In this document: positions 24,153-46,010 of the stretch, in pieces
How positions within the stretch are numbered: the first letter of the stretch is position 1
Layout: every line of letters begins with the position of its first letter
From: Bacteroidales bacterium
Lineage (GTDB): Bacteria > Bacteroidota > Bacteroidia > Bacteroidales > VadinHA17
NCBI GenBank assembly: GCA_050014255.1
Contig: JBEKDR010000033.1
Location: forward strand, 2,064-66,063
Length of the DNA stretch: 64,000 bases
Direction of reading: 5' to 3'
The notes under the pieces: model-generated
The model's database searches: none
What the model was told of the DNA's origin: nothing
Seen by the model: only the letters and a program-made list of their open reading frames with translations
Program-made: the position numbers and the translations under genes

Positions 24153-24224
<72 letters not shown>

Positions 24225-29811: not shown

Positions 29812-30402
29812 ATGAAAGAAAAACCTGGCCCACCGGCTACTAATATAGAATTTGACAAAGCATACAGTTCCTTACTCCACTGGATGTGGAGCGATATAAG
29901 AATTCCTAAGGAACTTAAAGAACTTGTTACAATCAATAAACCCAAAAATTCATTAGAGTTAGGTTGCGGACTTGGTCGATTTTCTTCCTTTATGTCAGCA
30001 CAAGGAATTAAAGCAACAGGAATTGACTTTTCTTCCGTTGCAATAGAGAATGCTAAGAAAAGAGTTGCCAGCGATAAATACAAACCGACATTTTTAGTGG
30101 GCGATGTGACCAATTTAGAAATGTTTAACGAACAGTTTGATGTTTCCTTTGATGTTGGTTGTTTTCACTGCTTGAATGAAGAAGGACAGAAAAGATATGT
30201 TGAAGAGGTTTACAGATTATTAAATTCTGGTGCTATACATTTACTTTGGGCGTTAGATAATTCACCCGGCAATATTAAATTAAATCCAAATTACATTTCC
30301 AATGTTTTTGGAAGCCATTTTCAATTGACAAAATCAAAATTTAGTGGGAGAAGAATTATATTTGTTGCATCACACTGGTATTGGCTTGTTCGTAAAAAAT
30401 AA
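29812..30402 (+). CDS. Class I SAM-dependent methyltransferase
   Basis: 196 aa. Motif I LELGCGLGRFS and post-I GIDFS. Confidence 0.75.
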   Translation: MKEKPGPPATNIEFDKAYSSLLHWMWSDIRIPKELKELVTINKPKNSLELGCGLGRFSSFMSAQGIKATGIDFSSVAIENAKKRVASDKYKPTFLVGDVTNLEMFNEQFDVSFDVGCFHCLNEEGQKRYVEEVYRLLNSGAIHLLWALDNSPGNIKLNPNYISNVFGSHFQLTKSKFSGRRIIFVASHWYWLVRKK

Positions 30403-30425
30403 TCCTCCTAAATGGAAAAACAACT

Positions 30426-31631
30426 ATGCTCACAGCTATAACAAATGCGCACATTTTCGATGGAGAGAGTGTCATTGACGACCACATCGTAGTGATTGAC
30501 GGGGAAAGAATTCTTAGTGTCGGCGGAGTTGTACCAACCGGGGCAACCGTCATCGATGCCCACAATACAACCCTGATGCCAGGACTAATAGATTCACATG
30601 TACATACTAATATTGACGGATTACATGACGCACTATTATTCGGTGTCACTACCGAGTTGGAAATGATGGGGCGATGGTCATTCAAAGAGCGCAAAAAAAT
30701 TGCTGAACGGTATGATGTAGCTGATTTTCGCTCTGCTGGTATGGGTGTCACTCCTCCGGGGGGTCATCCAACTCAATACATGAAATCCAGCAGTAACTTA
30801 CTGCTTAGATTTTTCTATCGCTATCCATTTGTTTCAAAACCTGAAGAGGCAATCAAATTTGTAAAAAAGCAGGTCGCCAACGGAGCCGATTATATCAAGA
30901 TTTTTATTGAAGATGGAACCACTGTTGGCTTTCCCGGACTTCCGGTTTTAAGCAACGAGATAATCATTGCGACCGTTAAAGAAGCTCATCGACTTTGCAA
31001 GATGGCCATTGCTCATGTGACAACTTTTGAAGGAGGGCAGAAAGCCATTTCGGCAGGAGTGGATGGGTTAGCGCACTTGTTTTTTGACCGCCAGCCTACC
31101 CCTGAACTAATTTCCGCTATTGCTTCTTCCGGAGCTTTTATTACTCCCACACTTGTGACGCTCTCAACTGCCTTTGGTAACAGCGCAGCCGGGCTGGCTA
31201 AAGACAAAAGAGTAAGTTCCAAACTCAGCAAAAAGTGGCTCAATTCACTCTCCAGGATCATGAATGTGTACCCTCAGGGTAACCTCGAAGATGCATTCGC
31301 CAGCGTCAGGGCTCTCCACAGTGCGGGAGTGGACATTCTGGCTGGCAGCGATGTGTCGGAACCAATCCCAATCCTTGGCGGTCTCGTCCATGGCGCCAGC
31401 CTCCATCACGAGCTTCAGTTGCTGGTCGCTGCGGGACTGAAACCTATCGAAGCCCTCCGGACAGCTACTTCGATACCTGCAAGACGCTTCGGACTTACAG
31501 ACCGTGGACGGATTGTTCCCGGAGCACGAGCCGACCTGCTTTTAGTCGGAGGGGACCCAATAACCAAAATCAGCGACACGCTGTCCATTCTTGGCATCTG
31601 GCGTAATGGTACTAAACTCAACACACACTGA
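30426..31631 (+). CDS. Metal-dependent amidohydrolase family protein
   Basis: 401 aa. PGLIDSHVH metal-binding motif, with later HV/HL and GSD segments. By eye it is more GC-rich than its surroundings. Confidence 0.8.
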   Translation: MLTAITNAHIFDGESVIDDHIVVIDGERILSVGGVVPTGATVIDAHNTTLMPGLIDSHVHTNIDGLHDALLFGVTTELEMMGRWSFKERKKIAERYDVADFRSAGMGVTPPGGHPTQYMKSSSNLLLRFFYRYPFVSKPEEAIKFVKKQVANGADYIKIFIEDGTTVGFPGLPVLSNEIIIATVKEAHRLCKMAIAHVTTFEGGQKAISAGVDGLAHLFFDRQPTPELISAIASSGAFITPTLVTLSTAFGNSAAGLAKDKRVSSKLSKKWLNSLSRIMNVYPQGNLEDAFASVRALHSAGVDILAGSDVSEPIPILGGLVHGASLHHELQLLVAAGLKPIEALRTATSIPARRFGLTDRGRIVPGARADLLLVGGDPITKISDTLSILGIWRNGTKLNTH

Positions 31632-31804
31632 TATAATAATTTGCTCCTATGCAAATGTCTTCTACCAATCACAGGTTAGATATTTCACCAGTCTCCGCTC
31701 CAAACAACAACAACCAATGACCTGTAAACTAATCATTTACGAGGTTGTTTATTGTCAAATTAGAAGCATATGGGAACCATTTGCTCTATTTACAAGCTAA
31801 ACAA

Positions 31805-31851
31805 CCTGACTCATAATCATATGGGTGCTGGTTTGAGCCCAGTTGGGCCCA
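31805..31851 (+). pseudogene. 3' half of an elongator-type tRNA-Met (anticodon arm to discriminator); the 5' half is absent
   Basis: CCTGA-CTCATAA-TCATA (decayed anticodon stem), TGGGT, T arm GCTGG-TTTGAGC-CCAGT, acceptor 3' strand TGGGCCC plus A. There is no complementary 5' acceptor strand upstream. Confidence 0.55.
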
Positions 31852-32176
31852 ATCACAAAATCTAACAGTTACAAATCCATATCGGAACTGTTTTTTATTT
31901 TTAGCCAGGGTTAAGCCAGGTTTTATTGAGATTTAACGAATTCCGGTTCAGTGTGATATAAAGGTCGGGGGGCAGTTACCACTTTCCTTTTATTATTTCA
32001 ATCAACAATCTTATTCAAGTCCTGACCAGATGGTTAACATGCTGAGTTTTGTTCACTGTTGTTTTGAAAAGGATCTCTCTCGACTAAATTTTAAGAATAC
32101 CTTAAAATCAGTGATGCTAATTCCGTATATCAGGAGGATTTTTCAGATGAATGAATTTTTATTTGTGTTTAATTAA

Positions 32177-32235
32177 TGTCTTTTATAACTTTATCACAAT
32201 GAATTACTAATATGGCAAGTCTCATCCAGGGGTTT
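32177..32235 (+). repeat. Left arm of a 59-bp inverted repeat (promoter-proximal DNA plus the first 8 codons of the TIR gene)
   Basis: 54 of 59 nt are identical to the reverse complement of 40499-40557. It includes TAACTTTA (a -7-like box), the start codon and MA(S/N)LIQG(F/Y). Confidence 0.9.
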
Positions 32236-33780
32236 GAATATGACATCTTTATTAGCTATCGTCAGAAAGATAATAAATATGATGGCTGGGTGACAGAATT
32301 TGTTGATCATCTGAAGAGGGAACTTGAGGCAACGTTTAAAGAAGAAATCAGCGTTTATTTTGACATCAATCCTCGTGATGGACTTTTAGAGACCCATTCC
32401 GTTAATCGTTCCCTTGAAAACAAACTGAAATGTCTCATTTTTATTCCAATACTCTCAAGAACTTACTGTGACTCAAAATGTTTTGCATGGAACAATGAGT
32501 TTCTTCCTTTTTTGAAAATTGCAGAAAAAGATAGGTTTGGGTTAAATATAAAACTAATAAACGGCAATGTAGCATCCAGAGTATTACCTGTACGCATCCA
32601 TGACCTTGAGCTAGAAGATATTAAATTAATAGAAACACATCTTGGTACTATTCGGTCAGTAGATTTTATTTATAAATCTCCAGGTGTTAACCGTCACTTA
32701 AGAGCCATAGAAGAGCACCCTCAGGACAATCTTAATAAAACTTACTATCGCGATCAGATAAACAAACTGGCTAATGCTATTGATGAAATTATCCGAAGCC
32801 TTAAAATTGTACAAATAATAACGGATGAAGAAAGAACTCTATTAAAGGAAGTTGCCACACCTGATTTTTTACAGGAATCAGGAACCTTTCTAAGTTATAA
32901 AGGTCAGATAGATTTTAATACTATTAATTTGTTATTAAAAAAACTAAAAAAGATCCCCATATTTGAAAATCTCAAAAAAACATCTGCAAAGAAAGTATAT
33001 TCTATTCTATCTGAATGCCTTGATAATATATCAAAATATTCTTTAAAAAAGCCTGGACTTTCTGGAATAGCCCAACCTTCTATTTCACTTGGACTTCAAA
33101 ATAATAAAATCATCATTAAAACAAGTAATCCAGTTTCTGAAGAAAAAATAAATAATCTGGACAGAAAGCTTAAACAGATAAATGACCTTGATGAGGAAAC
33201 CATCAGAGCCTTATATGATGAAAGAATTAATCAGGAATCAAAAACAGAAGAAAGTGGCGCAGGACTTGGATTTATATTAATGGTATTGAAATCAGGAAAC
33301 AAAATAGAATACAAATTTACCAGAGCAAATGAGGGCTATTATTATTTTGAATTACAAATTCCTGTAAATGAATCTATTGGAAGAAAGTTAATTATTGATA
33401 AAACAATATATTCACCTGCGGTTACTTTTGATCCCGACAAAAATATCTTTGAAATATCTGGAGAATCAAGACCCTTTGACGTTCCTAGATTTTATGAGAT
33501 TCTTTTAAAATGGCTTGATGAATATTCATTACATTTAAACAATTCGAACACTAACCAGGAACCGATTATATTTAATTTTAATTTTGAATATTACAATTCT
33601 TTATCATCAAAATACATACTTGACTTTTGCAAAAAGTTAGCTAATCTCCGCATAGATGGTAAAAATATTAACATAAAATGGCATTATGAGGAGGATGACA
33701 TGGATATGCTTGAAGCCGGCAAAGAGATGTCAAGAATTTCTAAATTCCCTTTTGAATATATTCAGAAAGGGCTAAATTAA
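32212..33780 (+). CDS. TIR domain - SiaB-like protein kinase - SiaC-like (DUF1987) triple-fusion protein
   Basis: 522 aa. TIR: YDIFISYRQKDN, CLIFIPILSRTY, CFAWNNEF. SiaB-like: FLSYKGQIDF, ECLDNISKY, SGAGLGFILMVLKSGNKIEYKF. DUF1987-like: SPAVTFDPDKNIFEISGESRP, FEYYNSLSSKYILDF, WHYEEDDMDMLEAGKE. Confidence 0.75.
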   Translation: MASLIQGFEYDIFISYRQKDNKYDGWVTEFVDHLKRELEATFKEEISVYFDINPRDGLLETHSVNRSLENKLKCLIFIPILSRTYCDSKCFAWNNEFLPFLKIAEKDRFGLNIKLINGNVASRVLPVRIHDLELEDIKLIETHLGTIRSVDFIYKSPGVNRHLRAIEEHPQDNLNKTYYRDQINKLANAIDEIIRSLKIVQIITDEERTLLKEVATPDFLQESGTFLSYKGQIDFNTINLLLKKLKKIPIFENLKKTSAKKVYSILSECLDNISKYSLKKPGLSGIAQPSISLGLQNNKIIIKTSNPVSEEKINNLDRKLKQINDLDEETIRALYDERINQESKTEESGAGLGFILMVLKSGNKIEYKFTRANEGYYYFELQIPVNESIGRKLIIDKTIYSPAVTFDPDKNIFEISGESRPFDVPRFYEILLKWLDEYSLHLNNSNTNQEPIIFNFNFEYYNSLSSKYILDFCKKLANLRIDGKNINIKWHYEEDDMDMLEAGKEMSRISKFPFEYIQKGLN

Positions 33781-33832
33781 TATTTTCTTAATCACCTTTT
33801 CATTTGAATCTTTCAGTAATGATCAACTGTAA

Positions 33833-35074
33833 TTACTTCATTTTTATTCCTACGATCAAAATATCATCAACCTGGTCAATATCACTTCTCCAATCTTCAA
33901 ATTTTTTTTCCAGAGTTTTTTTCTGTTCTGGCATAGACATGTTATGAATATCAATTAAAAGCTTTTTGAAATTTTCTGTTCTGAATGTTTTTCTATCTGC
34001 ACCTCCGAGCTGATCTACATAACCATCAGTAAATAAATAAATGATATCATTTTTTTTAATTAGTATTTCTTTATTAGTGAAGGATTGATCTTCCTGTTCG
34101 TAAATTCCAATTGGCCTTTTGTCGCCCTTAAATTCTTTTAATTCTTTATCGCGTATAAGATATAAAGGACGAAATGCCCCTGAATACTGTAATTTCTTCT
34201 TATCGGAATCAATAATGCATATAGCCATCTCCATGCCATCCCTTGTTTCATCACATTTCCCAGTCTGGTGAAGCGATTTTATAACCTGTTCACAGAGCTG
34301 GTTTAATATCTCATTTGCCTTAATAGTAACACCGTTATTCACAATTTCATTTAAAAATGAAACACCCAGGATACTCATAAAGGCTCCTGGAACACCATGG
34401 CCCGTGCAATCAGCAACTACAATGAACACTTGGTCGTCTTTACTGGCCAGCCAATAATAGTCCCCACTTACAATGTCCCTTGGCTTGCTTAAAACAAAAT
34501 ACGATGGAAGTAGTTTTTTAAACTCCTCATTTGGAGGGAGTAAAGCATGTTGTATCCTGCTGGCATATTGAATACTACATCTAATTTCTTTGTTCTGAGC
34601 CTCAATCTTCTGTGTGCGTTCAATTACTTTCTGTTCCAGTGTTTGGTTTGCTTCCTTAAGATCTTCAATTAATTTTCTATTTTGCTCCCTAAGATGATAT
34701 GTTTCAAGAGCCTTATCAATGTTTATTTTCAGTTCTTCCTTGCTCCATGGTTTAGTTATGTATCGATATACTCTGCCTGTATTTATGGCCTGAATAATAG
34801 CTTCAATGTCACTGAAACCGGTGAGTATCATCCTGATACAATCTGGGTACTCCGGAATGATTTTTTCAAGGAATTGAATACCAGTCATCTCAGGCATCCG
34901 TTGGTCGGTAATTATAAGATGAATCTCATTTTTTTTGAGTATTTCAAGTCCTTCGGCACCTGAAGTTGCCATGTGAACTTCATACTCGCGCCTGAAGGCT
35001 GAACTAAAAACAGTAAGATTATCCTGTTCATCATCAACATAAAGAATCGGTGGTAATGATTTGGTTGTATTCAT
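33833..35074 (-). CDS. Fused response regulator (REC) / PP2C-SpoIIE-type serine phosphatase
   Basis: 413 aa. REC: YVDDEQ, IITDQRMPEMTG, YITKPW. A coiled-coil linker follows. PP2C: SGDYYW, VADCTGHGVPGAFMS, FTDGYVDQ, DDILIVGI. Confidence 0.85.
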   Translation of the reverse strand: MNTTKSLPPILYVDDEQDNLTVFSSAFRREYEVHMATSGAEGLEILKKNEIHLIITDQRMPEMTGIQFLEKIIPEYPDCIRMILTGFSDIEAIIQAINTGRVYRYITKPWSKEELKINIDKALETYHLREQNRKLIEDLKEANQTLEQKVIERTQKIEAQNKEIRCSIQYASRIQHALLPPNEEFKKLLPSYFVLSKPRDIVSGDYYWLASKDDQVFIVVADCTGHGVPGAFMSILGVSFLNEIVNNGVTIKANEILNQLCEQVIKSLHQTGKCDETRDGMEMAICIIDSDKKKLQYSGAFRPLYLIRDKELKEFKGDKRPIGIYEQEDQSFTNKEILIKKNDIIYLFTDGYVDQLGGADRKTFRTENFKKLLIDIHNMSMPEQKKTLEKKFEDWRSDIDQVDDILIVGIKMK

Positions 35075-35116
35075 CTGAATTTAATTTTAATATATGACAA
35101 TTATAAATCGCTATAA

Positions 35117-38100
35117 TTATTCGAATGACTGACTTAAAGGAAGAGTTATTATAAAAACTGTGCCATTCCCCTGTTCACTTTTAAAAGAAATTGTGCCTTT
35201 GTGTTTCTCAATTATGCTTTGGCTTATCGAAAGTCCTAAACCCGTTCCCTTTCCAACTCCTTTTGTTGTAAAAAAGGGATCAAATATTTTTGTCTTCAGG
35301 TTTTCATGGATCCCATACCCAGTATCTTTTATGCTGACTTTTACGCTTTCTCCAGATATTGAAGTGCTTATGGTTATAGTCCCTTTTTCATCTATGGCAT
35401 CAACAGCATTAGAAAGAATATTCATAAATACTTGGTTTAGCTGACCCGGGTAACATTCAATAAATGGTAAATCACTATAGTTTTTTACAATTTCAATTCG
35501 ATTCTTGTACTTATTATGTAAGAGAATCAGAGTGGAATCTATCCCTTCATGAATATCCGCCATTTTAAGGATATCTTCATCCAAACGGGAAAAAGTACGC
35601 AGTCCTCTGACTATTTCAGTTGTTCTTTTTGCTCCGTTTTTGATACTATCGATGAGTTTGTTGATCTCCCTTATGGCTTCTTTGTAGTTAACTCTTTCCT
35701 TAAGCTCTTCAATCTCTTTCAGTTTTATATTGACGTTACGGGCAGTGATTTTATGATAAATTTCTATGACCTGTCTTATTTCTTCCAAGTTGTTCGACAA
35801 TGAATCGACACCAGCACTTATGAAATTTACTGGATTATTAATCTCATGAGCGATACCCGCAACAAGCTGACCAAGAGAAGCCATCTTCTCAGATTGTACT
35901 AGCTGGACTTGTGAATATTTAAGATTATCTAAGGTGGTGTTTAACTCTTCTTTTTGAATATTCAATTGTTCATTTTTAAGAGAAATTTCCGCTGTACGTT
36001 TCTCTACCTTTTCTTCCAAATTACGGTTATATTCTTCAAGATTTTTATAAAGTCTTGCATTTTCAATGGATACAACAATCTGCCCTGAAAGCATTTTTAG
36101 TATTTCTACTCGTTCAGACGTAAAAGCACCTGTTATAAGATTATTTTCAAGGTATAAAATACCGCTTAATTTGTTTTGATAAATAAGTGGCATACAAAAT
36201 AACGATTTTGATTGATTATGAAGAATATAATCATCATAACTAAAGATTGTTTCTTTCACGGCATCATCAAGAGTCAGAGTTTCCTTGGTCCGCAGTACAT
36301 AATTGATTACTACTTGCGCTATGTAATTGCTTTCCATAAATGGAATATGATGCAGAACGTTTACTTTATCTCTATTTGCAAATGCTTCTCCCTCTATAAA
36401 GAGTTTTTGATTATCCATTAAAAGGATATAGCCCTTTTCCGCTCCTGCGTCGGCAATAAGAATTTTTAGTAGTTTTTCAAGTAGTTTTTCCAAATGAATT
36501 TCACCTGATATTATCTGCGAGGCTTTCAGTACTGCCTCAAGGTCAATACGATCGATCGTTGCATCATCAGAATCAATGGTTTTCGTTTTCTTAAATTCTT
36601 CTTTTTCCTTAATGTGATCAGAGCCATGGGAGAGCAGATCCTTATATTCTTCATCAAGATGCCTGACTTTTGCTTTGGCACCCCATTTTATATACAAAAA
36701 TCGGGCTCCAGACATATGACTCCTGGCTGATGATTCATTGCCTTTAATTAGATAATACTTAGCTGCCAGTTCGTTTGCCAGTGCTTCATCCTGAATATAT
36801 CCATTTATATGAGCATACTGGATTGCTTCATTATAATGCACTATTGCCTTTTGATCTTTGCCAAGGACTTTAAACTTTTCCGCTTCCACAAGATGCCATT
36901 TATGAAGATGATTTTCCGGAGCATTTTTGGCATATTTCTTCATGGTTCTCTGATTGAGAAAGACTTTTCTGAGATAATAGAAACGCCTTTGCCATGGTTC
37001 TTCAGAAAGTTGATAAAGAAAAACAAGAGAGGTATAATAATAAACTAATGGAAGATATATCATTCCTACTAGTGGCTCTTTGTATTTTTCCAGGATAAGA
37101 GCATTTTTCAATGCTTCCGTTCTCTTGCCAAACAGGTAACAAACCATAGTTTTTTTTGTGTATAAGGTTCCTATTGTAACCTTATCATTAGCTTTAATCA
37201 GGAATGGCAACATCTCCTCTTCATTAAAACTATCACCAATAAAAAGAGTGTTGTCTTTTGCATATCCTCTAAGGTTAAGAGCCAGTTGCCTGTGCAATTG
37301 CATGTTATATAAAGTTCTTTCCTGTTTGAGTTTCTTTACAACCTCAATATATTTTCCCATTTCTTTATCCACTAATTCCAGATCCGTTCCGCAATAAAGA
37401 GAGTGAATACATGCCATCATTATGCTTAATGCTGCAAATTCCAAATCTCCTGTTTCCAATCCTAACTGATAACCTGCCATTAATGGGTCTATAGTTTCCC
37501 TTAATTTATCTTTCCAGTGTCTGATAAAAATATTGAATACTGCAATTATATTTGCATTAAATTCTTTTGTATTGAATTTTGAAATTAAATCAAATGAAAA
37601 TTTACCAAACTGATAACCCTGGGGAGTATTTCCAATCACACCTAATGAAACAACACCATACATACTATAACCATAAGGAGAAAATGGAGAGTTGCCATAT
37701 TTTATAGATAAATGAACCATATTTAATATCATCATTATTACCTTCAGGATTTGTACCCGATAGGCAGAACTGGCAGCTCTCATTAGAATTCGCATAGCTG
37801 CAAGCATATGTTCATCCTTCATGTGAGGCAATGCATTTAATTCATCCAGTGTATATCTGGATAAGATAAACCGCAGTTTCAGAATTGAAAGTAAAACATT
37901 AATCCTCTTTGGCTTTTCCGGAATATAAACACCTAACTGTTTAAGTATACCTATAGCGGTTGAAACAGCTTCTTCAATTCTTGCTCTTGCAATTAGTGAT
38001 TGTATAATTACTTCATTTATTTTAATTCTGTCAAGAAGTGATCTGGAATTCTTTATAACTTCTTTAGCTAAATCATTCATTTTTTCGAAATCTCCTGTTA

Positions 38101-40522
38101 AATAAGAACCTTCTGTGGCTTCCGTATACATCATAAGTGCAAGTGTATATTGATCTCGCCAACAACTAATTCCTAAAAGATCTATACCCAACAAGAAATA
38201 TCTATATGCAATTTCATAGGCGTTCGCTGCCTTAGCTTTTTTTCCTGCCATAAAATTTAGCCGGGCAAGTTCATTTTTTTCAGTTTTTTCCTCAATCAGA
38301 TCCAAACCGGAATTCAGTTGATTAGTAATATTAAATATTTTCTCCTCAAGCTCCTCCTCTCTGGAATTGCTTAATAACATACGACCTATTTTCAAATGGA
38401 GTTCTTTTCTTTGCTTTTCTGCAATCAATGAATAAGCAGCATACTGAATTCTGTCGTGACAGAATCTGTAACATACTTCTGCACTTTCGATATCATTATG
38501 AATGTACCTGTAAACATCACTCAAAGGGAGAATCAATTCCTCCTGAAGTGCTTCCCATAAATTATTTGCTGTTTCGATTGGAGTTTTTTCACATGTCATT
38601 GAAAGTGTTTTTAAATCAAATTGATTCCCTATGCATGCAGCAAGTTTCAGGGCAGATTGTGTATCCTCTGATAGTTTTTGAATTTCATTGACCATTAAAT
38701 CCACCACGTTGTCAGTTACCTTCAGTTTTTCAATCTTATAAATATCCCAGTGCCAAACCATCAGCTTGTGATCAAATTCAAAAAGCTTATTCCCGTATAT
38801 TGTCAGCAAAAATTGTATCAGAAAAAAAGGATTTCCGTTTGTCTTTTTCATGCAGAGTTTTGCAAGCTCTTCCGTTTTATCTGTCGAACATTTCAATGTA
38901 TCGGCAAGTAATAGGTTAATACTGGTGAAATCCAAAGATGATAATGAGAGAGTGTTTATTTTGATTTGAGCCTTTTGAATCCTATTCAGAACAATTAAAA
39001 GCGGGTGACTATTATCAACTTCATTATCCCTGTATGCGCCAATGAAAAAAAGATATTTTGTTTCTGAATCTGTCATAAACAACTCTACTAAATTTAATGA
39101 AGGAAGATCAATCCATTGGAGGTCATCAAGGAAAATAATTAGTGGATGTCCCACATTTGTAAAAGTTCTTATGAAATTAGTGAAATAAAGATTAAATCTG
39201 TTTTGTGACTCCTGCGATGGAAGCTCAGGGACAGGAGGCTGTTTGCCAATAATCAGCTCAACTTCAGGAATGACATCAATTATTACCCGTCCGTTTGGAC
39301 CGATTGCTTCCAATATTTCTTCTTTCCAGGTTGCAATTTGTTCTTCGCTTTCTGTGAGGATTTGTCTTATTAACTGCTGAAATGCCTGAATCAGTGAAAA
39401 AAATGGGATATTCCGTTTAAATTGTTCAAATTTTCCTGAAATGAAATATCCTTTTTTTGCGACAACATGCTTATGAATTTCATTCACTAAGGCTGATTTC
39501 CCAATTCCGGAATAACCGTAAACCATCATCATCTCTTTAGTACCCTGGCATACCCTGTTAAATGAATTTAATAATATTTCAATTTCTTTTTCCCGACCAT
39601 ACAATTTTTGTGGAATTTGGAACCTATTAGAAAAGTCTTTTTTTGCAATAGGAAAATTCTTTATTTTTCCTCCTGTATGAAGTTGTTCCAGACAATTTTC
39701 CAGATCAGCATTTAATCCAAATGCACTTTGATATCTTTCTTCAGCATTTTTTGCCATTAACTTAAGAATGATGCTTGAAAGAATCTCCATAGTTTCTTGC
39801 TCCTCATGACCTTTGGTAATCTTCAGTTCAACTGGAGGAACCGGGTCCTTGGCTATGTGGCAGTGAACTAATTCCATTGCATTGTTACACACGAAAGGTA
39901 GCTGACCTGTCATCATCTCATATAAAGTAACTCCAAGTGAATACATATCCGTCCTGTAATCTAGCATACGGTTCATTCTTCCTGTCTGTTCAGGAGATAT
40001 ATAGCTCAGAGTTCCTTCAAATTCATTCGGATTTTGTATACCAGTAACCTCGCGTGAAAGCACTGTTGAAATACCAAAATCAATGATTTTGACCTGGTCA
40101 GTTTCCTGATTCCAGACAATATTAGTTGGATTAATGTTTTTATGAATAATATTCAATTGATGAAGCTGACCCAGAATATAAGATATCCTAATTGAAAGCT
40201 TAAGAAATTCATTTAAATTCAGTTTCCTCTTTTCCAGTATTTCCTTTATTGATTCACCTCCGAAATCCTCCATGATGATGGCATAACTGTTATTATAGCT
40301 TTCAAGACTATAAGCTTTAATAGCACCTTCCAGATTTAAATTCCTCAGAATTTCATATTCCCTGTTAAAGCGGGCAATTCTTTCAGGGTCGGGATATTCT
40401 CCATTAAGAATCTTAATAATTACAGGAATGTCCTTTGCTTTCTTAAAAGCGCGATACACAGCTGAATTATAGCTTTCATAAAGCTTTTCTTTTATTTGAT
40501 ACCCCTGGATGAGATTTGCCAT
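35117..40522 (-). CDS. Giant sensor: degenerate Ser/Thr-kinase domain - AAA_16/STAND NTPase - TPR-like repeats - GAF - histidine kinase (HstK-like architecture)
   Basis: 1801 aa. Kinase fold with VIIK, DFG and SPE, but HRD reads HKN and the G-loop reads YESYNS. Walker A GYSGIGKS and Walker B IIFLDDLQW. About 650 aa of helical repeats, then a GAF-like region. H-box AGIAHEINNP and HATPase boxes NILSNAVDA, DTGYGI, GKGTGLGLS. Confidence 0.8.
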   Translation of the reverse strand: MANLIQGYQIKEKLYESYNSAVYRAFKKAKDIPVIIKILNGEYPDPERIARFNREYEILRNLNLEGAIKAYSLESYNNSYAIIMEDFGGESIKEILEKRKLNLNEFLKLSIRISYILGQLHQLNIIHKNINPTNIVWNQETDQVKIIDFGISTVLSREVTGIQNPNEFEGTLSYISPEQTGRMNRMLDYRTDMYSLGVTLYEMMTGQLPFVCNNAMELVHCHIAKDPVPPVELKITKGHEEQETMEILSSIILKLMAKNAEERYQSAFGLNADLENCLEQLHTGGKIKNFPIAKKDFSNRFQIPQKLYGREKEIEILLNSFNRVCQGTKEMMMVYGYSGIGKSALVNEIHKHVVAKKGYFISGKFEQFKRNIPFFSLIQAFQQLIRQILTESEEQIATWKEEILEAIGPNGRVIIDVIPEVELIIGKQPPVPELPSQESQNRFNLYFTNFIRTFTNVGHPLIIFLDDLQWIDLPSLNLVELFMTDSETKYLFFIGAYRDNEVDNSHPLLIVLNRIQKAQIKINTLSLSSLDFTSINLLLADTLKCSTDKTEELAKLCMKKTNGNPFFLIQFLLTIYGNKLFEFDHKLMVWHWDIYKIEKLKVTDNVVDLMVNEIQKLSEDTQSALKLAACIGNQFDLKTLSMTCEKTPIETANNLWEALQEELILPLSDVYRYIHNDIESAEVCYRFCHDRIQYAAYSLIAEKQRKELHLKIGRMLLSNSREEELEEKIFNITNQLNSGLDLIEEKTEKNELARLNFMAGKKAKAANAYEIAYRYFLLGIDLLGISCWRDQYTLALMMYTEATEGSYLTGDFEKMNDLAKEVIKNSRSLLDRIKINEVIIQSLIARARIEEAVSTAIGILKQLGVYIPEKPKRINVLLSILKLRFILSRYTLDELNALPHMKDEHMLAAMRILMRAASSAYRVQILKVIMMILNMVHLSIKYGNSPFSPYGYSMYGVVSLGVIGNTPQGYQFGKFSFDLISKFNTKEFNANIIAVFNIFIRHWKDKLRETIDPLMAGYQLGLETGDLEFAALSIMMACIHSLYCGTDLELVDKEMGKYIEVVKKLKQERTLYNMQLHRQLALNLRGYAKDNTLFIGDSFNEEEMLPFLIKANDKVTIGTLYTKKTMVCYLFGKRTEALKNALILEKYKEPLVGMIYLPLVYYYTSLVFLYQLSEEPWQRRFYYLRKVFLNQRTMKKYAKNAPENHLHKWHLVEAEKFKVLGKDQKAIVHYNEAIQYAHINGYIQDEALANELAAKYYLIKGNESSARSHMSGARFLYIKWGAKAKVRHLDEEYKDLLSHGSDHIKEKEEFKKTKTIDSDDATIDRIDLEAVLKASQIISGEIHLEKLLEKLLKILIADAGAEKGYILLMDNQKLFIEGEAFANRDKVNVLHHIPFMESNYIAQVVINYVLRTKETLTLDDAVKETIFSYDDYILHNQSKSLFCMPLIYQNKLSGILYLENNLITGAFTSERVEILKMLSGQIVVSIENARLYKNLEEYNRNLEEKVEKRTAEISLKNEQLNIQKEELNTTLDNLKYSQVQLVQSEKMASLGQLVAGIAHEINNPVNFISAGVDSLSNNLEEIRQVIEIYHKITARNVNIKLKEIEELKERVNYKEAIREINKLIDSIKNGAKRTTEIVRGLRTFSRLDEDILKMADIHEGIDSTLILLHNKYKNRIEIVKNYSDLPFIECYPGQLNQVFMNILSNAVDAIDEKGTITISTSISGESVKVSIKDTGYGIHENLKTKIFDPFFTTKGVGKGTGLGLSISQSIIEKHKGTISFKSEQGNGTVFIITLPLSQSFE

Positions 40523-40557
40523 GTTAGTAATTCATTTTGATAAAGTTATGAAAGACA
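40499..40557 (-). repeat. Right arm of the 59-bp inverted repeat (promoter-proximal DNA plus the first 8 codons of the sensor-kinase gene)
   Basis: Its reverse complement TGTCTTTCATAACTTTATCAAAATGAATTACTAACATGGCAAATCTCATCCAGGGGTAT matches 32177-32235 with 5 mismatches. Confidence 0.9.
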
Positions 40558-40851
40558 ATGATAAAAATCAATAAAAATCCATCCAAAAAAAAACTTAAGA
40601 GCATGTCTTATTCTTTTTAGGCTTAAGTTGGGAAAATCAGTGACCCTGACCATGAGAGGCCCGATCAAATTGACTACCAAAAGCACGAATAAAGATTTAT
40701 TGTATTGTTATTTTCGTAAGTGCTTCGAATACTTGGGATTATTATCCTAATGTCGTCATTAACCCCTCCTTCGGCTCCTCCCCTTAAACAAAAAGCCCTG
40801 CCCCGGGCCAGGAGAGCTAAAATGATCTGTTCCTGTATAGATATAGCGTTT

Positions 40852-41925
40852 TTACTTATTTTTTGGCGGGTCCTTGATGCAGCGGACAGATATGCCTTCA
40901 TAGACACCTGTGGTGCCACGATATATCTGGGAAGAATTATAATCCAGCTGCCGTACCCAGGCGTAATCACCTCTGATCGAGGAGGACCAGAACCGGATAG
41001 ATGTTCCAATATTCGTGAAATAGCCGGCACCATCACGCCATCCTGCGGGCAGTGCCCTGAAACGACTTTCATCGGTTGCTCCGGTGTTAGGAGTTTTCCA
41101 CAACTCTATTCCTTCATTTTTCATCTTGCCTCCTTCATCTTCTCCGCGCCAGTTCTCTTCATCGACTTCTGCCTGACTCATCCCAAGGAACATCTCAAGC
41201 TGTTTCCATTCACTGTCACTTGGCAGATGCCAGCCGTCAGGACAAACACCCTGCACGTTTCCCGTTTTGATATCGCTCCCTGAATCAAGATTCATAGCTG
41301 CCGGCCATGTGTAAAGATTGCCATATGTACCGGCGATGGCGCTATAGTTTTCATACCAGCAGTATGCGCTGTTATACCATGGCATGTTAAACCATGTGAG
41401 ACGGTCCTCAATCCGAGGAATTATTGAACCATCAGGATAGTGGCTTACCTTCAAATTATCACTCATCCATGTCTGATCACCAATATTTACAGGATAGTAT
41501 ATATTGTGGTCAATATCAATTATTGGAAGTACTAATGTATCAGGTGTTTTAAATGATTTCTCATCGCCATAATAAGGAATTGAATTGGTTATCGCAAAGG
41601 CTTTGACATAATAAGTTGTACCTGGCAAAATATCATATACAGTACTACTGAAACTTCCCGTTGAGTTTATGGGTCCTAACTGGATTAAAGTTCCATTTAT
41701 TTCGGGATTTGTTGATTCAGACCAATAGAATCCATGCTCATTGATTTCTTCCTTCCCGATACTGACAATTGTACCTTTTAATGTATAAATTCCCTCTGAA
41801 TAGATTTCTATATTATCTGTTGTAATTGCAAGGATTTTTTCAGTTTCAGTTTTTTTGCACCCGCTTAATGAAAAGATAATTACAACTATACCGATTTGTA
41901 TTTTTACTTTAACAGGATTCATCAT
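40852..41925 (-). CDS. FISUMP-domain lipoprotein (Fibrobacter succinogenes major paralogous domain)
   Basis: 357 aa. Lipobox LSGCKK. The C-terminal region has GDQTWMSDNL, YGNLYTW, CPDGWHLPSDSEW, RALPAGWR and ISVRCIKD, typical of FISUMP. Confidence 0.75.
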   Translation of the reverse strand: MMNPVKVKIQIGIVVIIFSLSGCKKTETEKILAITTDNIEIYSEGIYTLKGTIVSIGKEEINEHGFYWSESTNPEINGTLIQLGPINSTGSFSSTVYDILPGTTYYVKAFAITNSIPYYGDEKSFKTPDTLVLPIIDIDHNIYYPVNIGDQTWMSDNLKVSHYPDGSIIPRIEDRLTWFNMPWYNSAYCWYENYSAIAGTYGNLYTWPAAMNLDSGSDIKTGNVQGVCPDGWHLPSDSEWKQLEMFLGMSQAEVDEENWRGEDEGGKMKNEGIELWKTPNTGATDESRFRALPAGWRDGAGYFTNIGTSIRFWSSSIRGDYAWVRQLDYNSSQIYRGTTGVYEGISVRCIKDPPKNK

Positions 41926-42044
41926 TCAAAATTTACCCCTTTTTCCTAAGACCGTTATACCGACTGATACCCTACCGAAATTAAAATAATCCCCGGGGTC
42001 AGAAACAAAGAATTAACTTTTGAGGTTAGATATGTCCTATTGGT

Positions 42045-42236
42045 TGATTTTGCCCTTGAAATCGTTATTACCCTGTCTTCCAGAGGCTGCCTCATCACTT
42101 CCAGTACAGATCTTTTGAACTCAGGAAGTTCATCGAGAACTAAAACGCCATTATGCCCAAGGGAAATTTCGCCTGGTTTTGGAAAGATACCACCCCCTAA
42201 AGGGGCAATATCAGAAAAATATTGATGTGGGTATAT
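42045..42236 (-). pseudogene. Internal fragment (~64 codons) of a ComM/YifB Mg-chelatase-like ATPase gene
   Basis: My minus-strand translation reads [62 protein letters not shown]. It matches the conserved [20 protein letters not shown]...RQPLED...ISRA core of ComM, with no N- or C-terminal parts. Confidence 0.7.
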
Positions 42237-42303
42237 TTAATAGGTTCAAAGATTGTTGGAAATGTGATTCCCCTTTCTTTTCATGCTCCAATTATTTGTA
42301 CAA

Positions 42304-42696
42304 TTACTGATTAGCGATTAATTCTTTCTTGCTCTTGTTGTGACTCATTATGAATAAAATACCTGCCACAATTAAAGGAAGACAAAACATAAGCGGACCT
42401 TTAAGACCTTCCACCACTGAACCTGACCTTATATAAATAATTAAAAAGGCATAAATGAGGAAGGCAAAACTGAAAATTAACACGCTTATACCACCAACCT
42501 TTTCGTGTTTCCATGCAATTATTAATATAACAAGCAATACCATTGCTGGTGCAGAATTTGCCAAAAAAGTTCCTGCTTTCCCCCAAAAAGTGTGTTGATG
42601 TAAGACCGAATCAAAAGACATGAAGGCCAGTCCAAGGATAAAGAGGATACAAAGAATCCTTGCTATCCATTCAATTACTTTGGTAGATGTTTTCAT
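42304..42696 (-). CDS. Hypothetical 4-TM membrane protein
   Basis: 130-aa ORF with four hydrophobic segments. No family recognised. Confidence 0.5.
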   Translation of the reverse strand: MKTSTKVIEWIARILCILFILGLAFMSFDSVLHQHTFWGKAGTFLANSAPAMVLLVILIIAWKHEKVGGISVLIFSFAFLIYAFLIIYIRSGSVVEGLKGPLMFCLPLIVAGILFIMSHNKSKKELIANQ

Positions 42697-42877
42697 TTGA
42701 TTGATTTAATGAAGATGAATAACTAAAATAACTGAAAACCAGAAATTTGATGCAAGTTACACCAACTTAAAAGCAATGTCAAATAATTTATTATTACACC
42801 ACATAATAAATTACTGCATCATCAGATGTATTTTGATGTGGCAAATAAATGGTTAATTAACTTTATATTATTGTATT

Positions 42878-42917
42878 ATAAAAAATAAAATGCCCTAAAA
42901 TAATATCATTGGGCATT
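42878..42917 (-). terminator. Possible Rho-independent terminator of 42977-43393
   Basis: A 7-bp stem AATGCCC/GGGCATT (42889-42895 and 42911-42917) is followed on the minus strand by a T-rich run. Confidence 0.4.
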
Positions 42918-42976
42918 CAGTTGATATTAAGAACTACTATTTTACCCGTGTCCAGGTATAGGTTACGACAGGTTTG

Positions 42977-43393
42977 TCATTTACTATTGTGGTTTCTGTT
43001 ATAATATTCGGGATTCGAAAGATCACTAAATGAAATACTTACATATTTATATTTTGATACAAACCAAACTGCATTAATCTCTACGTCTGGTTTTTCATTA
43101 ATTGCTGCAACAATGTATTTATCAATTCCTTTGACATACCCCCAAAGTTGCTTTCCTTCTAAAATCGTTTTTCCTTTAGTAACATTCCACCAATCGCAAT
43201 CTTTGCCAGTTCCAACAGGTTTAAAATTCCAGTTGTCGATTGTGTCTTTACCAATTTCTCCAGTCCAGGAACCCTCTAGCTGTTTTATCAACTCAACTTG
43301 ATTGAGTTTTGTTTGTGTGGTTTGTGCCTGCAATCCGTCTAAACAGATTAAAAGAAATACAGGAATTGTGATTGTTAAGCAAAATTTTTTCAT
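42977..43393 (-). CDS. Hypothetical secreted protein
   Basis: 138-aa ORF with the signal peptide MKKFCLTITIPVFLLICLDGLQAQ. No family recognised. Confidence 0.5.
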   Translation of the reverse strand: MKKFCLTITIPVFLLICLDGLQAQTTQTKLNQVELIKQLEGSWTGEIGKDTIDNWNFKPVGTGKDCDWWNVTKGKTILEGKQLWGYVKGIDKYIVAAINEKPDVEINAVWFVSKYKYVSISFSDLSNPEYYNRNHNSK

Positions 43394-43654: not shown

Positions 43655-45835
43655 CTACTGTTCTTTTGGATTAAGCTTTTTCACAAATTCATTATAGCGA
43701 GAATCACCATGAAGGGGGTTAAACTCCGGAAGGATAGCGAGCCCGGCAATCCAAGCATGATAAGGCTTATGCTCCAGCCATTTGAATGCCTCATCTTTTT
43801 CTCCCAGCGCAGCATAAATCTCTATCAGACCAAGTGCCTGCCATGGTGTGACATCTCCTTTCAATATTTCATCTACTATCTGTTGCGCCTCTTTCTTATG
43901 CCCGGCCTTTGCATATGTGTATCCCAAAGCCCATTCCCACGTGGGATCCAGTTCAGCAAGTTTTTTATGTTCAGCAATCGCTTCATCAAATTTCCCCTGG
44001 CAAAGGTAGCAAAGACCTATAACATAATAACTTATTATGTAGTCCTTTTCAATCTCAAAAGCTTTTTTACATTCACGTATTGCATCATCATATTTTCCGT
44101 CATAATAGTATAATCCTCCGAGCCATGCAGTATGCTGCGGATTGAAGGGATCATATTTCTGTGCAAGTTTATGTTCCACGACTGCTTCCTCCATGCGACC
44201 TTTCAAGTAGAGGCACCAAGCATAATGATAATGAGTGATGGCTGAGTTTGGATTCAATGCAAGAGCTTTCTTAAAGTATTTCTCTGCCATGTCAAATTTC
44301 CAGTCATAATATGCCGATACTTCTCCAAGGGCCGTATAAACTTCTGCTATAGTCGTATCCAGTCTGATCGCCTGTAATGCTGCAGCCTCAGCTTTTTCCA
44401 GTGCATCACCCGTATCAAGGGGCCCGTGAGCAATTGCAGCATATCCAAGAGCCACACCAGCATAAGCAAATGCATCTCCCGGATCCGTTCTCAGGACTTC
44501 ATTCAGATACTCAATTCCCTTTTTTAATCCTTCATCCGTAAAAGCGTTAATATTGTACATACCTCTTAGGTATATCGCATAGGTTTCAGGATTAATTTTA
44601 CGTGGTGTCGGCAGTTTTACAATATTTTCAGGAGTAATATCAAAACCAATTTTTTTAATTATCTGACCTACGATATTGTTATATAGTTTTTCTGAATTAA
44701 TAATATCACTTTTATAATTACTGGCCCATATCAGTTTTTCATCCGGAAAAGCCTGAACCAGCCTTAACTTCAAATTAATTGAGTCTCCGACATTAATAAC
44801 TGAACCTTCAATAATATAATCGACATTGATCTCATTTGCTATTTCCGTAATCGACCTTGTGGCATTAGCAAACATTGAAGCCGTTTGACCTGAGAGCACA
44901 CGAAGGGGTTTGACCTGGCTTATCATGCATAATTCATTAGTCAGTGCTTCATTTTGTCCCTGAACAAGATAATCCTGATCTTGCTTCCCGGTGAGATTCT
45001 TGAATGGCAAAACTACAACTGATTTTTCTATGTCAGCAAGATTTGTTTTAGCATCAGGACTATTAAGGATCTCTTTATTATCTGCCTTACCTGAACCCGG
45101 AACAAGATAGAAATCCCCGGTAAGTGAAGTTGAAACCCATGGCAATTGGTGATTATCAGATTTTTTATATACATAAGCAGTTACCTTCTGGAACATCTGG
45201 ATAGCCGTTATCCCGGGTTCATTTATGTATGTCAGTATTCCTGAGGTATACAATCCGTTATTTCCTGCTATTCCGTCTGAAGCTGTGCTCCCGGGGGAAG
45301 TTGCAAGTGCGATTATAGAACCCACCGGCGCTGTCATTGTCGCGAGGCCCTTTCCCTTAGCTGCTCTTGTCCAGCTTCGTTCAAAGGGGTTATCCCGGCA
45401 TGCATCGAGGATCACAATATTAACTTTGTTTTTTGCATCCTCCATTTTTCCTAAAATCCTGTCGGCTCTGACACAGTTATATTCTACATCAGATTCGGAT
45501 TTTAAGGTTGCATCAACCGGCATCAGGTAATTAAAACCTTTTGACTGCAAACCATGGCCGGCATAGAAAACTAACCCTATATCATAATTTTTTAACTTGT
45601 TCCCGAAGTTATCTATAGCCCGGAACATCCCTTTTTGATCCAGGTTTTCATATTGCTCGACTTCAAACCCGATCCCTTTAAGTGCCGCCTCTATGGATTT
45701 TGCGTCATTTATAGGATTTGCAAGACTATTTTTCCCGTAATCACCATTACCTATTACCAGGGCCAGACGCCTTTCCTGCGAATAAACCGAAATGCAGAAA
45801 AGGAATATTACCGTAATAAAGACTAATTTTTTCAT
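43655..45835 (-). CDS. Secreted caspase-family (peptidase C14) protein with a TolB-N-like module and C-terminal TPR repeats
   Basis: Caspase His/Cys dyad context VFYAGHG and ILDACRDNPF. Middle module KSVVVLPFKNLTG. The C-terminal ~300 aa are TPR. The ORF track starts at a TTG (45859); the first ATG (MKKLVFITV..., a signal peptide) is at 45835. Confidence 0.75.
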   Translation of the reverse strand: MKKLVFITVIFLFCISVYSQERRLALVIGNGDYGKNSLANPINDAKSIEAALKGIGFEVEQYENLDQKGMFRAIDNFGNKLKNYDIGLVFYAGHGLQSKGFNYLMPVDATLKSESDVEYNCVRADRILGKMEDAKNKVNIVILDACRDNPFERSWTRAAKGKGLATMTAPVGSIIALATSPGSTASDGIAGNNGLYTSGILTYINEPGITAIQMFQKVTAYVYKKSDNHQLPWVSTSLTGDFYLVPGSGKADNKEILNSPDAKTNLADIEKSVVVLPFKNLTGKQDQDYLVQGQNEALTNELCMISQVKPLRVLSGQTASMFANATRSITEIANEINVDYIIEGSVINVGDSINLKLRLVQAFPDEKLIWASNYKSDIINSEKLYNNIVGQIIKKIGFDITPENIVKLPTPRKINPETYAIYLRGMYNINAFTDEGLKKGIEYLNEVLRTDPGDAFAYAGVALGYAAIAHGPLDTGDALEKAEAAALQAIRLDTTIAEVYTALGEVSAYYDWKFDMAEKYFKKALALNPNSAITHYHYAWCLYLKGRMEEAVVEHKLAQKYDPFNPQHTAWLGGLYYYDGKYDDAIRECKKAFEIEKDYIISYYVIGLCYLCQGKFDEAIAEHKKLAELDPTWEWALGYTYAKAGHKKEAQQIVDEILKGDVTPWQALGLIEIYAALGEKDEAFKWLEHKPYHAWIAGLAILPEFNPLHGDSRYNEFVKKLNPKEQ

Positions 45836-46010
45836 AACCGGCTGATTTTGTTTGCGCAAAGTTACACCTCGTTTAAGCCAAAGTCAATTCTTTTGTTCCA
45901 AATAAAAATCCCTGCCCCCAAGATTAACTCAGAAGGATTGAATAGAGAATAACCCAAGTATTTTAAAGTTCGTCCAAAATGTACTTGAATACATAGCAAT
46001 TTTATGCTAA

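Follow-up and report, generated by a model that had tools for sequence, protein, structure and literature searches.

Copies of a TIR-family promoter and start module at both outward ends of a SiaABC-like cluster in an uncultured Bacteroidales bacterium: a probable 5′-end capture

Why should two genes that encode unrelated proteins, facing each other from opposite ends of one gene cluster, begin with nearly the same sequence? The question is raised by a 64-kb window (the whole stretch of DNA analysed here, 64,000 nucleotides with a G+C content of 39%) from a metagenome-assembled genome (MAG) of an uncultured Bacteroidales bacterium, in which the gene for a TIR-like/SiaB/SiaC fusion protein and the gene for a very large sensor kinase share an inverted repeat that covers their promoter regions, their leaders and their first codons. 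We consider it probable that each arm of this repeat is a copy of a promoter, leader and start module conserved in the TIR-like gene family, that the right copy was grafted onto the kinase operon in this lineage, and that the two transcription units would consequently be under shared control. The two arms and the three genes of the cluster are as follows (comparison sequences are referred to by L numbers):

32148 to 32238, + strand: left arm, the native TIR-family 5′ module of the TIR-like/SiaB/SiaC gene (from the repeat and the family alignment)
40496 to 40585, − strand: right arm, probably a second TIR-family 5′ module, joined to the gene for the sensor kinase (missing from kinase orthologues)
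32212 to 33780, + strand: fusion of a TIR-like domain (residues ~1-210), a SiaB-family kinase (DUF6272) and SiaC, 522 aa (Pfam, NCBIfam, AlphaFold)
33833 to 35074, − strand: response-regulator receiver plus PP2C (SpoIIE/SiaA-like) phosphatase, 413 aa, second gene of the kinase operon
35117 to 40522, − strand: sensor kinase with Ser/Thr kinase, AAA_16 STAND ATPase, GAF and HisKA/HATPase domains, 1801 aa

The inverted repeat and the TIR-family 5′ module

The inverted repeat is real and far beyond chance. Positions 32177-32235 (+) agree with the reverse complement of 40499-40557 in 54 of 59 nucleotides, exactly as the original prediction had described, and the calling of the two genes as a TIR fusion and a sensor kinase was borne out by open reading frame (ORF) and domain analysis. 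The length of 59 bp, however, is too short: a repeat search returned an ungapped inverted repeat of 82 nt with 84% identity (32157-32238 / 40496-40577), by a wide margin the longest in 30000-43000, and a gapped local alignment joined 32148-32233 to 40501-40585 with a single 1-nt gap, so that the true extent is 82-86 nt at ~84% identity. The arms are 84-92% identical, with a longest perfect run of 14 nt. A 34-nt core pattern is present at exactly two places in the window (0 expected, from 100 shuffles). When the window's gene 5′ regions (-90..+30) were compared in all 630 pairings, the TIR/kinase pair scored 53.5 and the best of the remaining 629 pairs 16.5 (mean 8.2, sd 1.3). Both arms, in the same arrangement, are found in an independent Joint Genome Institute (JGI) assembly of the same organism (L001); therefore the repeat is not an assembly artefact.

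Each arm comprises a promoter, a leader, an ATG and 7-8 codons, in agreement with the earlier claim of a duplicated expression signal with shared first codons, and by sequence comparison each appears to belong to a type of promoter module that is shared, in conserved form, by many Bacteroidales genomes. The module reads, from 5′ to 3′, a GGATGGA-like box, TATTTGaCTT (containing the predicted -33 element), 20 nt, CTTTCrTAACTTTAwCACAATGAA (the predicted -7 element and start region), 8 nt and the ATG, with a coding part of ATG GCA AGT CTC ATY CCN GGN TAY. The left arm contains all of these parts (an upstream GATGAATGA box, -33, -7, leader, ATG, and codons 1-8/9), and its orthologue in L004 retains CTTTTATAACTTTATCA at the equivalent place. 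The same upstream sequence, with the same spacing, precedes TIR-family genes in L014, L015a, L015c, L016, L018a/c, L020 and L009a/b, and in part in L004. The native start of the TIR family is MASLIPGYEYDIFISYRQ (in extended form MASLIPGYEYDIFISYRQKDNKYDGWVTEF), and MASLIQGF, the first eight residues of the TIR gene in the window, is part of this conserved start.

The module is tied to this one gene family. Scans of whole DNA collections, of which the window's own genome is not part, with a 28-base core returned only two contigs, L014 from a metagenome and L015 from a Bacteroidales MAG, and both matches lie directly 5′ of TIR-family genes. When 283 kb were scanned with the 24-nt core, allowing up to 4 substitutions, every match stood 8 nt before a TIR-family ATG, except the one at the kinase in the window and its replicate in L001. 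Identity between pairs averages 0.68 over -34..-1, compared with 0.46 for third codon positions and 0.28 over -120..-71. The genes inside tandem arrays (L015b and L018b) are without the module, as expected for genes within operons. As judged from these comparisons, the module is shown to be family-specific and under selection.

Several features of the family itself were observed along the way. In many Bacteroidota its members occur as fusions with TPR, TolB-like and other domains, and the TIR-like domain of ~210 aa (32212-32850 in the window; proteins P0041-P0120) keeps 65-78% amino acid identity across differing C-terminal parts (TPR, TolB-like, SiaB-SiaC) in many MAGs, yet no Pfam family matches it above threshold. 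In L015:1651-7079 (-) and L018:1263-8136 (+), TIR genes form tandem arrays of three, with the module on the first and sometimes the last gene.

Since the family has kept both leader and first codons conserved, and MASLIPGY is nearly invariant in it, the shared element might instead act after transcription, either as a cis-regulatory RNA made of leader and first codons or as an octapeptide tag for localisation, modification or degradation. We regard this as very unlikely. Conservation also covers ~65 nt 5′ of the ATG, including DNA not expected to be transcribed. A structured RNA or riboswitch was tried as a candidate and rejected: Rfam gave none at the gathering score over the whole window, nor at E up to 1 around each arm, and four family leaders folded no better than shuffles (z-scores from +0.2 to +1.5). 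As for a tag, which the original prediction had offered as one of three explanations, MASLI(P/Q)G(Y/F) is simply the native TIR-family start, and the kinase family's own MISLPGY is already similar, so that no new peptide function was gained.

The kinase copy and its origin

The first eight codons of the kinase encode MANLIQGY, which is of the TIR-family type. In the kinase family, which ranges from Bacteroidales to cyanobacteria, the native start is instead MIS(L/F/I)PGYQIKEKL, with seven residues before the Q, and an MA.LI..Y start is found in 0 of the 119 other kinases listed. The four nearest of the orthologues compared (84-68% amino acid identity) have kept the native start, and the DNA upstream of it is unrelated to that of the window. 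For example, L010 (84% amino acid and 82% nucleotide identity) can be aligned only from window position 40509, 14 nt into the coding sequence, with unrelated sequence upstream; in L021 (77%) the true start is ATGATTTCTGTCAGGGGGTACCAG, after a short intergenic gap behind another kinase gene; and the kinases of L013 and L011 have native 5′ ends too. Neither L006 nor L009 (a 10-kb contig), where orthologous TIR-SiaB-SiaC clusters are paired with other sensors, carries an inverted copy. The original prediction had named absence of the repeat from related clusters as the outcome that would make it a strain-specific accident, and the repeat is indeed missing from them: the pairing of the two arms is lineage-specific. 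Given orthologues with a native start and unrelated upstream DNA, it follows that the kinase operon captured the TIR-family 5′ module in this lineage.

The right arm also carries the start of the kinase, whose ATG is the first start codon to follow an in-frame stop; another Met comes only ~83 codons downstream, inside the kinase domain. The only other feature needed here lies upstream of the arm:

40794 to 40809, − strand: terminator-like hairpin with a T-run, after the upstream Fib_succ_major gene (consensus match only)

This hairpin would isolate the kinase operon from read-through, which leaves the right arm as its only evident promoter; with the only plausible start codon as well, the right arm must be in use. 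Within the genomes compared, the kinase copy is thus shown to be unique to this lineage and to supply the kinase start codon.

How was the copy acquired? The junction lies within ...CCAGGGGTA..., at the G-Y codons, and since both families natively have CCAGGGGTA-type sequence at their P/Q-G-Y codons, the junction is one of microhomology. The left copy would be native to the TIR-like/SiaB/SiaC gene and the right copy would have replaced the native 5′ end of the kinase operon, either by ectopic recombination or conversion, or by a deletion that left the kinase joined to the stump of a TIR paralogue. The swap was nearly conservative, because the kinase's native MIS(L/F)PGY already resembles MASLIPGY. 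It is an oddity in its own right that the native starts of two unrelated families are so alike (MIS-LPGY and MASLIPGY), and it is from this likeness that the microhomology at the junction arose.

Over the promoter and leader columns, 45/56 positions agree between the two arms, while the gene L015a, from another MAG, agrees with them at 48/56 and 47/56. The similarity of the arms to each other is therefore no closer than their similarity to L015a, and the promoter and leader part of the repeat is explained by family membership. Codons 1-7 are different: there the arms match at 21/22, sharing the unusual ATCCAGGGG where the family usually has ATTCCAGGT, and other members of the family alignment match the arms at 19/22 at most. 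L020, which is not in that alignment, has the first 19 nt of its coding sequence identical to the left arm, showing that CTCATCCAGG is native in the TIR family. Judging from these matches, the donor could have been the adjacent TIR gene or another paralogue.

These data also bear on a different account, in which the right arm is a neutral relic of a TIR paralogue (or of an ancestral TIR-kinase fusion) that was deleted down to its first 8 codons, with no selection for co-regulation. Several facts fit it: TIR paralogues adjoin such clusters, and in L009 a second TIR gene flanks the sensor operon; tandem arrays of TIR genes exist in L015 and L018; in its promoter part, the right arm resembles the L015a type more closely than it does the adjacent gene; and one microhomology deletion at CCAGGGGTA would suffice. 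The account concerns origin more than function, however, and an arm that gives the only plausible start and the only evident promoter cannot be inert. Similarity stops at the upstream edge of the conserved module, which suggests that a functional part was maintained while the flanks decayed, and a TIR-kinase fusion is found in 0 of the 240 homologues listed. We therefore hold a neutral relic to be possible but doubtful.

A comparable duplication was seen in L009, where positions 1403-1523 and 9858-9978 form a 121-bp direct repeat of 97.5% identity, with near-identical promoter, leader and first 20 codons. The two TIR-family genes concerned bracket a whole SiaB-SiaC / receiver-PP2C / histidine kinase / FIST cluster, and the repeat suggests gene conversion between paralogues or a recent duplication.

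Predicted promoters and shared control

The Bacteroidetes promoter consensus consists of a -33 element, TTTG, and a -7 element, TAnnTTTG (PMC7366714, PMC6847099); we used the variant TAHHTTTG for the latter, and required TTTG ~19-21 nt upstream of it for the former. Both arms have such elements, with a spacer of 20 nt in each:

32162 to 32165, + strand: predicted -33 element TTTG, left arm, 20 nt 5′ of the -7 element (conserved as TATTTGaCTT in the family alignment)
32186 to 32193, + strand: predicted -7 element TAACTTTA, left arm (7/8 consensus positions)
40569 to 40572, − strand: weakened -33-like ATTG, right arm, 20 nt 5′ of the -7 element (1-nt deletion relative to the family consensus)
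40541 to 40548, − strand: predicted -7 element TAACTTTA, right arm (7/8 consensus positions)

The -7-like box that had been pointed out at the outset resembles the Bacteroidetes -7 element at all but the last position. Transcription would start at ~32198 (left) and ~40536 (right), ~5 nt 3′ of the -7 element, giving predicted leaders of ~14 nt; unstructured, A-rich initiation regions are favoured in Bacteroidetes (PMC6847099). A scan with an E. coli-type promoter model gave fewer matches than in shuffles, this model being uninformative for Bacteroidetes. From the sequence features together, the case is best filed as a promoter or 5′-end capture involving a putative sigma-ABfr-type, gene-family-specific promoter.

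If both arms fire as sigma-ABfr-type promoters with ~14-nt leaders, possibly with an additional regulator site in the extended core, then the TIR-SiaB-SiaC unit and the receiver-PP2C/sensor-kinase unit would share transcriptional control. The two convergent units would be the halves of one SiaABC-like partner-switch pathway, so the arrangement probably serves the co-regulation of both halves of one signalling pathway. Co-regulation is also the one of the three original explanations that we favour, by way of a shared promoter of a gene-family type; its variant with a structured RNA as the common element fails, for the reasons given above.

The third explanation was a recombination substrate, with inversion of the 8.3-kb segment between the arms swapping upstream contexts. 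Such a segment might invert in the manner of a shufflon or phase-variation switch, or by RecA, and exchange upstream contexts or N-termini. The inverted repeats do enclose the entire cluster and reach into 5′ coding sequence, invertible elements are numerous in Bacteroidales (PMC5903667, PMC10028968), and gene order near the module varies between genomes. Nevertheless, no tyrosine or serine recombinase was found with Pfam among the ORFs of at least 150 aa across the window or the three shorter ORFs beside the cluster. Efficient recombination by RecA needs ~20-30 bp of identity, and the longest perfect run between these arms falls below that. The orientation is the same in the assembly consensus of the window, L001, L002 and L003, an exact look-up in ~15 billion proteins found none of the chimeric proteins that inversion would create (MAN...TIR and MAS...kinase), and each of the two 90% clusters contains just one member. 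On the single orientation in three further assemblies, together with the lack of chimeric proteins, an inverted isomer was rejected. Moreover, with a complete promoter and start on both arms, inversion would change almost nothing; we judge it extremely improbable that the arms serve this purpose.

Shared control by a captured module, the reading we prefer, has points that weigh against it. The match of 21/22 in codons 1-7 hints at direct copying or conversion between the arms, or at a close paralogue as donor. In Flavobacterium johnsoniae the -7 element covers -12 to -5 and its final G is nearly invariant (PMC6847099), but the final position is A in both arms and in all family members. The -33 element of the right arm is degraded, its ATTG being a 3/4 match after the 1-nt deletion, and the two promoters may therefore differ in strength, the right one possibly being the weaker. 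The start sites and the activity of both arms are predictions. Finally, of the kinase relatives whose start is visible, even the nearest has no more than 84% identity, which bounds the age of the event poorly, and the contig with the closest orthologous TIR-SiaB-SiaC cluster (L004) ends before the kinase start.

A short 5′ graft of this kind would be a compact way to rewire regulation in uncultured Bacteroidales, here placing a sensor-kinase/phosphatase operon under the same promoter type as its downstream partner. It would be neither a new DNA switch nor a new class of element. More interesting is perhaps a by-product of the analysis, the unusually conserved, family-specific promoter and leader module before a very conserved TIR-like family, which offers a concrete sequence with which a dedicated regulator can be tested for. 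Speculatively, the core and the GGATGGA box may be the site of such a regulator or of an alternative sigma factor that defines a TIR-like regulon across Bacteroidales, the module being a recombination-prone 5′ cassette grafted again and again onto different gene bodies; we think this unlikely on present sequences. If it were so, the gene bodies would include TPR, TolB-like, CsgG-like and SiaB-SiaC proteins and, here, a kinase with no TIR domain, and this kinase would be a snapshot of the recruitment of a signalling gene into the regulon.

The signalling cluster, its surroundings and known systems

The assignment of the cluster to a SiaABC-like pathway comes from its domains. The TIR fusion matches Pfam DUF6272 (101.3 bits), Pfam SiaC (98.7 bits, cutoff 24.5) and the NCBIfam model SiaB_fam_kinase NF038262 (111.5 bits, cutoff 85). 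The phosphatase has a SpoIIE/PP2C domain (82.3 bits) and matches the SiaA equivalog model over the PP2C part only, at 194 against a cutoff of 700; it has, accordingly, a SiaA-like domain and is not an orthologue of SiaA. Pfam scans found no GGDEF domain or SiaD diguanylate cyclase in the cluster or its neighbours, and the TIR-like domain sits in the output position in place of SiaD. Genes for the kinase, the receiver-PP2C protein and a DUF6272-SiaC protein co-occur in L004, L010, L011 and L013, in varying order and orientation, and are therefore functional partners.

The N-terminal domain of the fusion is below threshold for Pfam TIR_2 (22.6 bits against a gathering score of 28 bits, E 1.6e-4). 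Its AlphaFold2 model (mean predicted local distance difference test score, pLDDT, 80; predicted template modelling score, pTM, 0.81) was compared with the PDB by Foldseek, and the top matches are all TIR domains: RPP1, RUN1, BtpA, SARM1, MyD88, PdTIR and AbTir (probability ~1.0, E 1e-4 to 1e-3, target-normalised TM ~0.45-0.6). According to this model, the N-terminal ~210 aa would have a TIR (flavodoxin-like) fold. Annotation as anti-phage defence was considered and set aside: PADLOC gave no match for the TIR gene, and the matches of the kinase are generic kinase-domain ones.

The sensor paired with the receiver-PP2C protein differs between clusters: in the window (33833-40522) it is the giant Ser/Thr kinase/STAND/GAF/histidine kinase, and in L006 and L009 it is a histidine kinase plus two FIST proteins, one of them fused to a flavin mononucleotide (FMN) oxidoreductase. 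Other genes are inserted in some clusters, a radical-SAM gene in L004 and a major facilitator superfamily (MFS) transporter in L010, L013 and L021. In the window, the convergent units end 52 nt apart (33781-33832) and the scan shows no terminator-like hairpin between them, making convergent read-through or transcriptional interference possible there.

Around the cluster, the intergenic region of ~515 nt between an amidohydrolase gene and the left arm (31632-32147) is unusually long for a gene-dense window; it contains no ORF of at least 80 aa and no Rfam match at the gathering score (E up to 1 for 32000-32400 only). Caspase (Peptidase_C14)-TPR and AraC-HTH-TPR proteins are encoded a few kb from the cluster (43655-45859 and 48071-50206, both on the − strand), and in L016:7641-10469 a CHAT-TPR protein adjoins a TIR-TPR gene, so there may be a recurring TIR/caspase/TPR neighbourhood. 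One tRNA gene (24153-24224, +) is the only Rfam match in the window. A gene for the 2479-aa SprA protein of type IX secretion (3281-10720, −), together with ruvA, pdxA, dxr and rseP-like genes, indicates an ordinary chromosomal context.

Four known systems invite comparison. In Pseudomonas aeruginosa, SiaA, SiaB and SiaC form a partner switch (PMC7647112), and as in that SiaABC(D) system, the window has genes for a PP2C phosphatase, a SiaB-family kinase and a SiaC phosphoprotein in one cluster. Here, however, a TIR-like domain precedes SiaB and SiaC in a single fusion protein, the phosphatase has a receiver domain and is paired with the 1801-aa sensor, SiaD is missing, and the genes form two convergent units, not one operon. 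In the invertible promoters and shufflon-type 5′-end swaps of Bacteroides (PMC5903667, PMC10028968), inverted repeats with gene 5′ ends likewise bracket a segment, but the arms studied here are imperfect, have no invertase nearby, carry a promoter each and are seen in one orientation.

Promoter capture or 5′-end replacement by ectopic recombination between paralogues is a further likeness, with a short 5′ segment placed on an unrelated gene, a junction at microhomology and no counterpart in the orthologues. It differs from the usual case in that the recipient is the signalling partner of the donor-type gene, and in that the copy lies inverted at the opposite end of the same cluster, in a symmetrical layout. 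Sigma-ABfr promoters are resembled in the -7-like TAACTTTA of both arms, the TTTG-type element 20 nt upstream, the short unstructured leader and the A at -3. Apart from the A that ends the -7 element in place of G, the present promoters are set off from them by conservation far beyond the two boxes (the 24-nt core, the fixed 8 nt to the ATG and the GGATGGA-like box) that is tied to one gene family, and that may reflect an additional site for a regulator or a specialised sigma factor.

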